Source: Escherichia coli
GTDB taxonomy: Bacteria > Pseudomonadota > Gammaproteobacteria > Enterobacterales > Enterobacteriaceae
Length of the DNA: 64,000 bases
Assembly (NCBI RefSeq): GCF_048403405.1
Contig: NZ_CP183129.1
Strand: one strand, 5' to 3'
Part shown: positions 1 through 3,355 of the stretch, piece after piece
How the letters are laid out: each line of letters begins with the position of its first letter
Position numbering within the stretch: position 1 is the stretch's first letter
Translations under genes and position numbers: made by a program
Notes under the pieces: model-generated
Told to the model about the DNA's origin: nothing
Databases searched by the model: none
Seen by the model: the letters and a program-made list of their open reading frames with translations, nothing else

Positions 1-235
1 AAGGGGTAACGCACAGCGCTCTTCACTCCTGATGGGGCATATCGTTTTGCCTGACAAAGAGGGCGTGCTTTTGCGTATTTGCCGAGATACCAGGCAATTT
101 CATGGGATATAAACGCCTGTAAACTCACCCGGCGAATATTATCGCTCTGAATTTTAAATAAATTTATTTTTCGCCAGCCACCCCGGTATTAACCCAGGCA
201 GCCAGCATTTTTTATTTTCCTCATGGAGAATCGCT

Positions 236-2218
236 ATGTCACGTCCGCAATTTACCTCGTTGCGTTTGAGTTTGTTGGCTTTGGCTGTTTCTGCCACCTT
301 GCCAACGTTTGCTTTTGCTACTGAAACCATGACCGTTACGGCAACGGGGAATGCCCGTAGTTCCTTCGAAGCGCCTATGATGGTCAGCGTCATCGACACT
401 TCCGCTCCTGAAAATCAAACGGCTACTTCAGCCTCCGATCTGCTGCGTCATGTTCCTGGAATTACTCTTGATGGTACCGGACGAACCAACGGCCAGGATG
501 TAAATATGCGTGGCTATGATCATCGCGGCGTGCTGGTTCTTGTCGATGGTGTTCGCCAGGGAACGGATACCGGACACCTGAATGGCACTTTTCTCGATCC
601 AGCGCTGATCAAGCGTGTTGAGATTGTTCGCGGACCTTCAGCATTACTGTATGGCAGTGGTGCGCTGGGTGGAGTGATCTCCTACGATACGGTCGATGCA
701 AAAGATTTATTGCAGGAAGGACAAAGCAGTGGTTTTCGTGTCTTTGGTACTGGCGGCACGGGGGACCATAGCCTGGGATTAGGCGCGAGCGCGTTTGGGC
801 GAACTGAAAATCTGGATGGTATTGTGGCCTGGTCCAGTCGCGATCGGGGTGATTTACGCCAGAGCAATGGTGAAACCGCGCCGAATGACGAGTCCATTAA
901 TAACATGCTGGCGAAAGGGACCTGGCAAATTGATTCAGCCCAGTCTCTGAGCGGTTTAGTGCGTTACTACAACAACGACGCGCGTGAACCAAAAAATCCG
1001 CAGACCGTTGAAGCTTCTGATAGCAGCAACCCGATGGTTGATCGTTCAACAATTCAACGCGATGCGCAGCTTTCTTATAAACTCGCCCCGCAGGGCAACG
1101 ACTGGTTAAATGCAGATGCAAAAATTTACTGGTCGGAAGTCCGTATTAATGCGCAAAACACGGGGAGTTCCGGCGAGTATCGTGAACAGATAACAAAAGG
1201 AGCCAGGCTGGAGAACCGTTCCACTCTATTTGCCGACAGTTTCGCTTCTCACTTACTGACATATGGCGGTGAGTATTATCGTCAGGAACAACATCCGGGC
1301 GGCGCGACGACGGGCTTCCCGCAAGCAAAAATCGATTTTAGCTCCGGCTGGCTACAGGATGAGATCACCTTACGAGATCTGCCGATTACTCTGCTTGGCG
1401 GAACCCGCTATGACAGTTATCGCGGTAGCAGCGACGGCTACAAAGATGTTGATGCCGACAAATGGTCATCTCGCGCGGGGATGACTATCAACCCGACTAA
1501 CTGGCTGATGTTATTTGGCTCATATGCCCAGGCATTCCGCGCCCCGACGATGGGCGAAATGTATAACGATTCTAAGCACTTCTCGATTGGTCGCTTCTAT
1601 ACCAACTATTGGGTGCCAAACCCGAACTTACGTCCGGAAACTAACGAAACTCAGGAGTACGGTTTTGGGCTGCGTTTTGATGACCTGATGTTGTCCAATG
1701 ATGCCCTGGAATTTAAAGCCAGCTACTTTGATACCAAAGCGAAGGATTACATCTCCACGACCGTCGATTTCGCGGCGGCGACAACTATGTCGTATAACGT
1801 CCCGAACGCCAAAATCTGGGGCTGGGATGTGATGACGAAATATACCACTGATCTGTTTAGCCTTGATGTGGCCTATAACCGTACCCGCGGCAAAGACACC
1901 GATACCGGCGAATATATCTCCAGTATTAACCCGGATACCGTTACCAGCACCCTGAATATTCCGATCGCTCACAGTGGCTTCTCTGTTGGGTGGGTTGGTA
2001 CGTTTGCCGATCGCTCAACACATATCAGCAGCAGTTACAGCAAACAACCAGGCTATGGCGTGAATGATTTCTACGTCAGTTATCAAGGACAACAGGCGCT
2101 CAAAGGTATGACCACTACTTTGGTGTTGGGTAACGCTTTCGACAAAGAGTACTGGTCGCCACAAGGCATCCCACAGGATGGTCGTAATGGAAAAATTTTC
2201 GTGAGTTATCAATGGTAA
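236..2218 (+). CDS. chuA: TonB-dependent outer-membrane heme receptor ChuA
   Basis: 660-aa ORF with N-terminal signal peptide (..LALAVSATLPTFAFA), TonB-box-like ETMTVTA right after it, and C-terminal aromatic residue (..VSYQW) typical of OM beta-barrels; followed 49 bp later by chuS on the same strand. Confidence 0.9.
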   Translation: MSRPQFTSLRLSLLALAVSATLPTFAFATETMTVTATGNARSSFEAPMMVSVIDTSAPENQTATSASDLLRHVPGITLDGTGRTNGQDVNMRGYDHRGVLVLVDGVRQGTDTGHLNGTFLDPALIKRVEIVRGPSALLYGSGALGGVISYDTVDAKDLLQEGQSSGFRVFGTGGTGDHSLGLGASAFGRTENLDGIVAWSSRDRGDLRQSNGETAPNDESINNMLAKGTWQIDSAQSLSGLVRYYNNDAREPKNPQTVEASDSSNPMVDRSTIQRDAQLSYKLAPQGNDWLNADAKIYWSEVRINAQNTGSSGEYREQITKGARLENRSTLFADSFASHLLTYGGEYYRQEQHPGGATTGFPQAKIDFSSGWLQDEITLRDLPITLLGGTRYDSYRGSSDGYKDVDADKWSSRAGMTINPTNWLMLFGSYAQAFRAPTMGEMYNDSKHFSIGRFYTNYWVPNPNLRPETNETQEYGFGLRFDDLMLSNDALEFKASYFDTKAKDYISTTVDFAAATTMSYNVPNAKIWGWDVMTKYTTDLFSLDVAYNRTRGKDTDTGEYISSINPDTVTSTLNIPIAHSGFSVGWVGTFADRSTHISSSYSKQPGYGVNDFYVSYQGQQALKGMTTTLVLGNAFDKEYWSPQGIPQDGRNGKIFVSYQW

Positions 2219-2266
2219 TCATCTGCCCCGATATTTCGGGGCATTTATCTGGAAGGAAGAGAGACA

Positions 2267-3295
2267 ATGAACCACTACACACGCTGGCTTGAGTTAAAAG
2301 AACAAAATCCCGGAAAGTACGCGCGTGACATCGCAGGTTTAATGAATATTAGCGAAGCAGAACTGGCATTTGCACGCGTCACGCACGATGCGTGGCGGAT
2401 GCGCGGCGATATCCGTGACATTCTGGCGGCGCTCGAAAGTGTTGGCGAGACCAAATGTATTTGTCGTAATGAATATGCAGTCCATGAGCAAGTTGGTGCG
2501 TTCACAAACCAGCATTTGAACGGACATGCCGGATTGATCCTCAATCCACGCGCGCTGGATTTGCGTCTGTTTCTCAATCAATGGGCCAGTGTTTTTCACA
2601 TTAAAGAAAATACGACTCGTGGCGAACGCCAGAGTATTCAGTTCTTTGATCATCAGGGCGATGCATTACTAAAAGTTTATGCCACCGACAATACCGATAT
2701 GGCGGCATGGAGTGAGCTTCTGGCACGGTTTATCACCGATGAGAATACGCCGCTTGAGTTAAAAGCCGTTGATGCGCCAGTCGTTCAAATGCGAGCCGAT
2801 GCCAGTGTGGTCGAGCAAGAGTGGCGGGCGATGACCGACGTTCATCAGTTTTTTACGTTGCTCAAGCGCCACAACCTGACGCGCCAACAGGCGTTCAATC
2901 TGGTGGCAGACGATTTGGCCTGCAAAGTATCCAACAGTGCGTTGGCGCAAATTCTTGAATCTGCACAGCAGGATGGCAATGAAATCATGGTGTTTGTTGG
3001 CAACCGTGGCTGCGTACAGATTTTCACTGGCGTGGTAGAAAAAGTGGTGCCAATGAAAGGTTGGCTGAATATTTTTAACCCGACGTTTACTCTTCATCTA
3101 TTAGAAGAGAGCATTGCTGAAACCTGGGTAACCCGTAAACCTGCTAGTGACGGTTATGTGACCAGTCTGGAATTGTTTGCCCATGATGGTACGCAGATAG
3201 CGCAACTTTATGGTCAACGTACAGAAGGCGAACAGGAGCAAGCGCAATGGCGTAAGCAAATTGCTTCGCTGATACCGGAAGGCGTTGCTGCATAA
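2267..3295 (+). CDS. chuS: Heme-degrading/heme-trafficking protein ChuS (HemS/ShuS family)
   Basis: 342-aa ORF directly downstream of chuA; sequence recognised as ChuS/HemS family. Confidence 0.85.
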   Translation: MNHYTRWLELKEQNPGKYARDIAGLMNISEAELAFARVTHDAWRMRGDIRDILAALESVGETKCICRNEYAVHEQVGAFTNQHLNGHAGLILNPRALDLRLFLNQWASVFHIKENTTRGERQSIQFFDHQGDALLKVYATDNTDMAAWSELLARFITDENTPLELKAVDAPVVQMRADASVVEQEWRAMTDVHQFFTLLKRHNLTRQQAFNLVADDLACKVSNSALAQILESAQQDGNEIMVFVGNRGCVQIFTGVVEKVVPMKGWLNIFNPTFTLHLLEESIAETWVTRKPASDGYVTSLELFAHDGTQIAQLYGQRTEGEQEQAQWRKQIASLIPEGVAA

Positions 3296-3355
3296 CGTAT
3301 AATTAACGGGAGGTCTGGCTATTTATTGCTGGGCCTCTTTATATTGATCAATCGT

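Follow-up and report, generated by a model that had tools for sequence, protein, structure and literature searches.

The chuA-chuS pair beside dctR belongs to the conserved chu heme uptake locus at its canonical site in the Escherichia coli chromosome

The window analysed here, a stretch of 64,000 nucleotides of E. coli DNA, opens with two heme genes, chuA and chuS, that are absent from K-12 and end close to dctR. A previous sequence-only reading had taken them as part of an island inserted in the acid fitness region. Positions 1-3354 almost certainly form the rightmost third of chu (shu), a conserved locus for the uptake and utilisation of heme, at its canonical chromosomal site. This locus corresponds to O-island 140 of O157:H7 and sits between yhiD and dctR (yhiF) within the acid fitness island (PMC10540162). 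The chuA-chuS pair found here is an ordinary feature that is already known and whose description in the literature is complete. The practical value of the analysis lies in annotation, and the established picture of chu as a virulence-associated iron source is unchanged.

The boundaries of the locus were examined by comparing the window with strain 4621, whose DNA matches positions 1-18900 at 100% and shows 22 differences among the 45,216 bases compared over the remainder, and with K-12. The names chuA, chuS, dctR and slp were taken from the RefSeq annotation of identical DNA. In strain 4621, chuTWXYUV lies directly upstream of the window start, followed by yhiD-hdeBA-hdeD-gadE; the rest of the cluster is thus located beyond coordinate 1, as had been presumed earlier. 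The same operon, divergent from chuA, is also present upstream of it in Sakai and S88. In K-12, dctR and yhiD are separated by 41 bp and no chu segment was found, which agrees with the absence stated in the sequence-only reading. Junction alignment gave a K-12-absent segment of ~9,058 bp (8297-17354 of the strain 4621 locus, L001; window position = L001 position - 14000), with 51 bp between yhiD and chuV and a right boundary at window 3354/3355, a single base short of the stop codon of dctR. From the presence of chuTWXYUV upstream in the identical genome and the 41-bp junction of K-12, we conclude that the window holds the last ~3.35 kb of a ~9.06-kb locus. The window begins 235 bp upstream of chuA, and both chuTWXYUV and the Fur box are known from near-identical genomes. 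On the right-hand side, the chuS stop (3295) and the convergent dctR stop (3356) leave a gap of exactly 60 bp (3296-3355), the spacing that had been read from the sequence.

Table 1. Features at the chu end of the window and the basis on which each was assigned
Feature	Position	Strand	Basis
Part of the chu locus in the window (DNA lacking in K-12)	1..3354	.	Junction alignment with K-12
chuA 5'UTR, 3' part, nt +57 to +291 of the 291-nt leader	1..235	+	Sakai alignment and mapped start
Repressive/Rho-dependent 5'UTR segment, +177 to +217	121..161	+	PMC9002310; sequence identical to Sakai
shuA/chuA FourU RNA thermometer	207..238	+	Rfam RF02597
chuA, TonB-dependent outer-membrane heme/hemoglobin receptor, 660 aa	236-2218	+	ORF, profile, structures, RefSeq
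Stem-loop TGCCCCGA-TATT-TCGGGGCA, then TTTATCT	2224..2243	+	Terminator-like match
chuS, cytoplasmic heme-binding/degrading protein, 342 aa	2267-3295	+	ORF, Pfam, structure alignment
Intrinsic terminator of chuAS	3308..3347	+	Folding energy
dctR (yhiF), LuxR-type regulator, 176 aa	3356..3886	-	ORF, profile matches, RefSeq annotation
slp, next after dctR	4039-4605	-	

Comparison with characterised loci showed that the chu locus of O157:H7 (Sakai ECs_4379-4387; EDL933) has the same genes in the same order and orientation, with the yhiD and dctR flanks and junction sequences identical to those of this strain. At the DNA level, the Sakai genes are 98.5% (chuA) and 97.2% (chuS) identical to those in the window, and the overall divergence of the O157:H7 locus amounts to 2-3%. 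Gene order is also the same in S88. Unlike O157:H7, this strain carries an extra pair of genes, for an ArsP-type permease and an ArsR-like protein, further right, near arsC. As for the shu locus of Shigella dysenteriae (shuA, shuS, shuTWXYUV), which belongs to a different host lineage, the likeness was read from the ShuA structure 3fhh, which matches ChuA over its full length with 1428 bits, and from the leaders, since both shu and chu leaders fall in the FourU thermometer family RF02597.

We then looked at how the pair is distributed. We found chuAS in 2,236 (about 40%) of the 5,426 complete E. coli genomes, and 59% lack it. Among the carriers, the pair is always present as one chromosomal copy, never on a plasmid, and is contiguous with dctR-slp in all but three (2,233 of 2,236). 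According to published data, chu is present in phylogroups B2, D, E, F and G and absent from A, B1 and C (PMC8281228), a distribution that matches the view of these genes as markers of lineages outside A and B1. The chuA-positive status of the strain therefore places its lineage outside phylogroups A, B1 and C. A strain with the label ST38 is among those with the nearest alleles, which points to phylogroup D.

Regarding age, we think it probable that the chu locus is ancient in Escherichia and vertically inherited, with a probable loss in the A/B1/C lineage instead of a recent insertion. No integrase, transposase or tRNA was annotated or found at the locus, and neither direct nor inverted terminal repeats were detected where the island begins and ends. 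The G+C content of the chu locus is 50.4%, equal to the genome average, and that of the neighbouring acid-fitness-island genes is 33-47%. Identity of the island and of its flanks was 97.7% and 97.8%, respectively, when compared with Sakai, and 96.5% and 97.7% when compared with S88. Furthermore, three genomes representing other species-level lineages of Escherichia have the locus at this same site between yhiD and dctR, with DNA identities of 85-97%. The lack of mobility genes, tRNA and repeats, together with a genome-like G+C, a divergence like that of the flanks and the use of the same site in distant Escherichia, argues that the locus is old; having none of these elements and no atypical G+C, it does not qualify as a classical mobile genomic or pathogenicity island. 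The term "inserted island" hence stands as a description of the difference from K-12 but not as a statement of evolutionary direction. An 8-bp sequence, TATTTATT, occurs near both island ends and was considered as a repeat; its right copy is part of the terminator loop and has no equivalent in S88, and we attributed it to chance.

For the K-12-like groups, loss is no less likely than gain. The strongest alternative to an old locus that was later lost, which we consider possible but rather unlikely, is that the empty site of K-12 type is ancestral and that ancestors of B2, D, E, F, G and the cryptic clades acquired chu in one or a few events, after which it possibly spread by homologous recombination in the flanks. 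Such a history would explain the 34 bp that are unique to K-12 and have no island counterpart, as a replacement on insertion would leave, and would fit a region that appears unusually variable, with the gor gene of this strain ~96.6% identical to its K-12 counterpart. Local alignment of this 34-bp filler with the island sequence scored 11-12, equal to shuffled queries; since the filler lacks similarity to the island, the junction shows no simple deletion scar and does not reveal the polarity of the change. An ancestral empty site is harder to reconcile with junctions that are identical in Sakai, S88 and the present strain, with the occupied site in the three divergent Escherichia species representatives, with an island divergence that matches that of the flanks, and with the independent partial loss seen in one retrieved locus (L005), from which chuTWXYUV is gone. 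The usual placement of phylogroup E, a carrier of chu, as the sister group of A/B1/C was also counted against ancestral absence. The HS-02 genome, in which a truncated chuA adjoins dctR, was set aside as evidence of deletion because nearly every chu gene in it is flagged as frameshifted, and the assembly looks low-quality.

It is very improbable that the chu segment is a recent, horizontally acquired, mobile pathogenicity island integrated in the acid fitness island. The absence from K-12 and from more than half of the complete genomes, the virulence-associated function and the name of O-island used in the literature would all suit a recent arrival, but the site is constant and never plasmid-borne, the G+C equals the genome average, integrase, transposase, tRNA and terminal repeats are missing, the divergence between phylogroups equals that of the flanking core genes, and Escherichia lineages with only 85-95% DNA identity carry the locus at the same place. 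A further point in favour of acquisition, that chuAS is far closer to the hemRS genes of Citrobacter and Enterobacter than the transporter genes are to their counterparts, hints at a mosaic origin that is itself old. The hemRSTUV/hmuRSTUV loci of Yersinia, Citrobacter, Enterobacter and relatives are made of the same parts (receptor, HemS-type protein, periplasmic binding protein, permease and ATPase), with amino acid identities of 69-89% for ChuA and 65-85% for ChuS and of only 31-37% for ChuT. For Citrobacter and Enterobacter hemRS, the identities to chuAS are 84-89% and 78-85%, whereas chuUV is ~50-60% identical to the loci of these genera and slightly closer to Yersinia. Unlike chu, these loci are colinear in the order R-S-T-U-V on one strand and do not adjoin dctR or yhiD; chuWXY is absent near them except in Yersinia, where it lies upstream, these being the only homologues in the retrieved set. 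We lean slightly towards chu being no insertion into E. coli but an old Escherichia-wide locus, found at this site also in lineages of cryptic-clade level, that the ancestor of A/B1/C lost; it may in addition be an ancient mosaic, with recent common ancestry of chuAS and the hemRS genes of Citrobacter and Enterobacter and much more distant transporter genes.

The orthology of both genes, on which the previous reading depended, was upheld. ChuA matched TIGR01785, the TonB-dependent heme/hemoglobin receptor family, with 588 bits (cut-off 317), showed the plug and barrel architecture by Pfam, and aligned over its full length with the solved ChuA/ShuA structures 9dhe, 9dir and 3fhh (1428-1445 bits). 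The protein has a signal peptide of 28 residues, a TonB box (ETMTVTA) and both His86 and His420 (mature numbering). ChuS contains two HemS domains in tandem (two stretches of PF05171) and aligned end to end with ChuS of O157:H7 (1u9t), from which it differs by substitution at 9 of 342 residues (~97% identical). It retains His193 and Arg100, and its sequence places it in the HemS/ChuS heme-degrading family. His193 of ChuS is the axial ligand, and the products of the reaction include hematinic acid and a tripyrrole (PMC6018153). There is hardly any chance that these copies are decaying, non-functional remnants: insertion sequences interrupt the versions H14-H17, HS-02 has a truncated copy and L005 lacks chuTWXYUV, but in the window neither ORF is shortened, both share 97-100% identity with characterised alleles and keep the ligand residues, no damage is seen in the leader, the ribosome-binding sites or the terminator, and identical alleles are found in many clinical isolates.

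The window begins within the chuA leader and not at its promoter. In Sakai, the chuA transcription start mapped by dRNA-seq precedes the ATG by 291 nt (PMC9002310). Alignment with Sakai revealed zero indels downstream of the promoter, with twelve substitutions in the distal leader and complete identity from +174 to the start codon (window 118-260 is identical). The sequence-only reading had noted a weak, Fur-box-like cluster at 134-160. We scored 19-mers against the consensus GATAATGATAATCATTATC: the best one overlapping the cluster reached 10/19 (scan of 110-175) and the best anywhere in 1-235 reached 11/19, while the best site in shuffles of the full intergenic region, whose last third is 1-235, was usually at 11-13/19. 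The AT-rich patch is real, with a Fur score at chance level, and corresponds to +190 to +216 of the transcript, within the repressive segment. A predicted Fur box with 17/19 matches, GATAATAATTCTCATTATC, was found at L001 13928-13946, that is, 55-73 nt before window position 1, where it would span -17 to +2 of the mapped start and thus overlap the chuA promoter. We therefore give next to no credence to the cluster as a Fur operator controlling chuA: it is AT-rich and upstream of the gene, but it scores under the usual best of shuffled sequence, it falls within the transcript, and the far better box overlaps the start. As this box lies just outside the window, scanning 1-235 would wrongly imply that chuA lacks iron control. 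Promoter-like matches in 1-4900 were not in excess (9 versus 8.3 expected from shuffles).

Downstream in the leader, the match to RF02597 scored 60.1 bits (gathering score 58, E 4e-8), and the Rfam scan otherwise returned a single chance-level match, to a nematode snoRNA. In the hairpin at 214-231, UUUUCC (215-220) pairs with the Shine-Dalgarno sequence GGAGAA (225-230), with a predicted energy of -7.6 kcal/mol (z -2.8). The nucleotide designated U273 in PMC9002310 is window position 217. The thermometer has been demonstrated experimentally for shuA/chuA (PMC3660397), and the function of the segment at 121-161 comes from truncation and bicyclomycin experiments (PMC9002310). Between chuA and chuS there is a gap of 48 bp, in which the stem-loop listed in Table 1 lies just 5' of the chuS ribosome-binding site. 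In EHEC, the sRNAs FnrS and RyhB target this ribosome-binding site and control chuS translation (PMC4104026), and the hairpin may play a role in the control of chuS.

Our analysis established which genes these are, their synteny and boundaries, how far the regulatory RNA elements are conserved, where the predicted Fur box lies and how the locus is distributed in the population; the following steps of regulation and biochemistry are drawn from the literature and established knowledge. Under iron limitation, Fur would leave the box overlapping the chuA promoter, and its release would yield a chuAS mRNA with the 291-nt leader. The leader would curb expression through its repressive, Rho-dependent segment, with termination near 215, and at low temperature the FourU hairpin would mask the ribosome-binding site; CyaR would act as an activator of translation. 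Host hemoproteins would be the source of the heme, which ChuA, energised by TonB, would import through the outer membrane. ChuT and ChuUV, whose genes precede the window, would bring it to the cytoplasm, and ChuS would bind and degrade it to release iron.

The operon would end at the strong terminator listed in Table 1. It consists of a 12-bp stem (3308-3319 with 3328-3339) and an 8-nt loop followed by UUUAUAUU, and folding gave -20.5 kcal/mol (z -3.8) on the + strand and -9.3 kcal/mol (z -0.8) on the - strand. Being strong on the + strand only, the terminator belongs to the chu side. It ends 8 nt short of the stop codon of the convergent dctR, the first core gene of the acid fitness island to the right of the chu locus.

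The heme-uptake genes at the start of the window belong to the textbook chu locus (O-island 140), an already known feature with a published regulatory leader. A sequence-only reading had placed chuA-chuS against dctR at a spacing of 60 bp; this was confirmed, the stop-to-stop gap (3296-3355) being exactly 60 bp, and the interpretation built on it was supported apart from a Fur site and the direction of the "insertion". Judged from its sequence, the chuA product is a TonB-dependent heme/hemoglobin receptor: it scored 588 bits against TIGR01785 (cut-off 317), a domain search found Plug and beta-barrel domains, and the whole protein from residue 29 onwards matched the solved ChuA/ShuA structures 9dhe, 9dir and 3fhh at 1428-1445 bits. 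The same search identified two HemS domains in ChuS, and over its full length this protein aligned with O157:H7 ChuS (1u9t), nine substitutions separating the two. Score, domains and structure matches together establish both proteins as orthologues of ChuA and ChuS. The heme-ligand residues known from structural work, His86 and His420 (mature ChuA numbering) and His193 and Arg100 of ChuS, were all found in the window proteins. The role of ChuS His193 has been confirmed (PMC6018153).

Features of the chuAS region (window coordinates)
Feature	Position	Strand	Description	Source
FourU thermometer (shuA/chuA), RF02597	207-238	+	60.1 bits vs gathering score 58	Rfam
chuA	236-2218	+	660-aa ORF	ORF map and sequence
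chuA-chuS gap hairpin	2224-2243	+	terminator-like, G+C-rich, followed by a T-run	terminator scan
chuS	2267-3295	+	342-aa ORF	ORF map and sequence
Stem-loop before dctR	3308-3347	+	strong, followed by a U-run; in the 60-bp gap	folding
dctR	3356-3886	-	176-aa ORF, convergent with chuS; LuxR-type regulator, followed by slp	

When window 1-4900 was compared by megablast with 5,426 complete genomes of E. coli, several proved to be 100% matches. Among them is strain 4621 (locus L001; L001 position minus 14000 gives the window position), which is identical throughout window 1-18900 and shows 22 differences among the 45,216 positions that remain. Upstream of the position corresponding to window position 1, it carries chuT, chuW, chuX, chuY, chuU and chuV on the strand opposite to chuAS and, beyond them, yhiD, hdeB, hdeA, hdeD, gadE and mdtEF. 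Judged from such near-identical genomes, the remainder of the cluster thus lies beyond coordinate 1, as had been presumed. Arrangement and neighbours are the same in O157:H7 Sakai and in the B2 strain S88, whereas in K-12 dctR and yhiD are convergent neighbours 41 bp apart with no chu gene between them. Similarity to K-12 stops 5-7 bp past the yhiD stop codon (5 bp in a row, or 7 bp if a single G/A mismatch is allowed) and returns at window 3354/3355, a single base ahead of the dctR stop codon, so that ~9,058 bp, of which the last 3,354 fall inside the window, stand in place of 34 K-12-specific bp.

The sequence-only reading had also pointed to a weak Fur-box-like AT-rich patch at 134-160. When all 19-mers between chuT and chuA were compared with the Fur consensus, the top score was 11/19 within window 1-235 and 10/19 within 110-175; in shuffled sequence the highest-scoring site usually reaches 11-13. 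The high-scoring sites are outside the window: GATAATAATTCTCATTATC on the chuA side (17/19; 13928-13946 of L001, the strain 4621 locus, 55-73 nt before window position 1) and a 16/19 site adjoining chuT (L001 13576-13594, 407-425 nt before window position 1). By consensus score, these two predicted sites are the true Fur boxes at the divergent promoters of chuA and chuT. In Sakai, differential RNA-seq located the chuA transcription start 291 nt ahead of the ATG start codon (PMC9002310), in agreement with the 278-342 nt measured for the shuA leader (PMC3660397). The intergenic region shares 98% column identity with that of Sakai, and downstream of the promoter the alignment is free of indels. 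Transferred by alignment, the start is at L001 13945, within the 17/19 box, and window position 1 is nucleotide +57 of the leader, which makes all of window 1-235 transcribed leader rather than promoter. The patch at 134-160, which scores at chance level and lies inside the transcript at +190 to +216, was rejected as a Fur site.

The same patch is part of a leader segment spanning +177 to +217. Deleting this segment in EHEC raised chuA-gfp expression 9-fold and abolished the effect of bicyclomycin (Rho) (PMC9002310). Since window 118-260 is identical to Sakai, the EHEC leader results should apply directly here. Directly 5′ of the chuA start codon we also observed the FourU thermometer, absent from the sequence-only reading; folding predicted its hairpin at 214-231, and U273, mutated in the EHEC study (PMC9002310), is window 217. 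The hairpin in the chuA-chuS gap may act as a partial terminator or as an mRNA-stabilising structure within the chuAS operon, and is located upstream of the chuS ribosome-binding site, the target of FnrS and RyhB in EHEC (PMC4104026). The stem-loop before dctR is read as the probable chuAS terminator, because a U-run follows it and good folding is predicted for the chu strand (-20.5 kcal/mol, z -3.8) but not for the opposite one (-9.3 kcal/mol, z -0.8).

Among the 5,426 complete genomes, 2,236 (41%) carry chuAS, always as a single chromosomal copy with 97.1-100% identity and, in all but three (2,233/2,236), contiguous with dctR-slp. This distribution agrees with the reported presence of chu in phylogroups B2, D, E, F and G and its absence from A, B1 and C (PMC8281228). 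It likewise agrees with a published account in which O-island 140 is inserted into the acid fitness island, with yhiF and yhiD on either side (PMC10540162).

The idea of an inserted island holds relative to K-12, but the marks of a mobile element are missing and the direction had to be corrected. Neither annotation nor prediction shows an integrase, transposase or tRNA in the chu segment, and a search for terminal repeats at its ends found none. Its G+C content (50.4%) equals the genome average, and the surrounding acid-fitness genes are G+C-poor (gadE 33%, dctR 40%, hdeAB 41-43%). By composition, across L001 1-20100 (window to ~6100), it is the flanks that look more foreign than the "island". 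Identity to Sakai is 97.7% for the island and 97.8% for the flanks, and to S88 96.5% and 97.7%, respectively. A search with ChuS against one genome per GTDB species found chu at the same site in three further Escherichia genomes, each farther from the window strain than Sakai or S88 and two of them well outside the identity range seen here within E. coli. Two (L006 and L007) show 80-95% DNA identity across the region and contain the whole locus. The third (L005, Escherichia sp. MOD1-EC7003; ~96% identical) retains only chuAS, intact, with an ERIC-like element at the deletion point in place of chuTWXYUV (L005 5895-5970) and a second copy inserted in the chuA 5′UTR (L005 6283-6400). Because the island diverges like its flanks and occupies the same site in these genomes, these comparisons indicate that the locus is old and was inherited together with its neighbourhood. 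Phylogroup E is usually placed as sister to A/B1/C, so loss in the A/B1/C ancestor would be more parsimonious than gain, and we somewhat favour it. The 34-bp K-12 filler showed no similarity to the island sequence, so the junction itself does not decide the direction of change.

Citrobacter, Enterobacter, Kluyvera, Buttiauxella and others have their homologues in colinear order (R-S-T-U-V) and at a different genomic location. Across the Enterobacterales loci compared (L008-L084), ChuA and ChuS are 65-89% identical to hemR/hemS products of other genera; ChuW, ChuX and ChuY homologues were found nearby only in Yersinia, and none near the heme loci of Citrobacter/Enterobacter and closest relatives. 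The uneven identities across the Chu proteins suggest that the locus in Escherichia arose long ago as a mosaic.

Amino-acid identity of Chu proteins to homologues
Protein	Citrobacter/Enterobacter and closest relatives	Yersinia
ChuA	84-89%	~70%
ChuS	78-85%	67%
ChuT	31-37%	35%
ChuU	~60%	67-69%
ChuV	~50%	59%
ChuW, ChuX, ChuY		54-59%, upstream of receptor gene

Elsewhere in the window, a 407-aa ORF (4850-6073, minus strand) with no Pfam or NCBIfam match corresponds, in intact form, to yhiS, a pseudogene that IS5 splits in K-12; RefSeq marks the identical sequence in strain 4621 as frameshifted and annotates a 406-aa version in strain HS-02 as intact. Between arsC and this yhiS homologue, 6653-8058 encodes a 337-aa permease of the ArsP_1 family with a Cys-rich loop and, divergently, a 98-aa regulator of ArsR/SmtB type, a pair missing there in K-12, Sakai and S88. 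Finally, between yhhJ and nikR (~33,000-43,500; L085 14385-24705) lies an Rhs element whose core gene is 4.2 kb long, together with IS remnants and several orphan toxin/immunity fragments (genes of the NTF2-fold immunity, pentapeptide-repeat and SEL1-like kinds).
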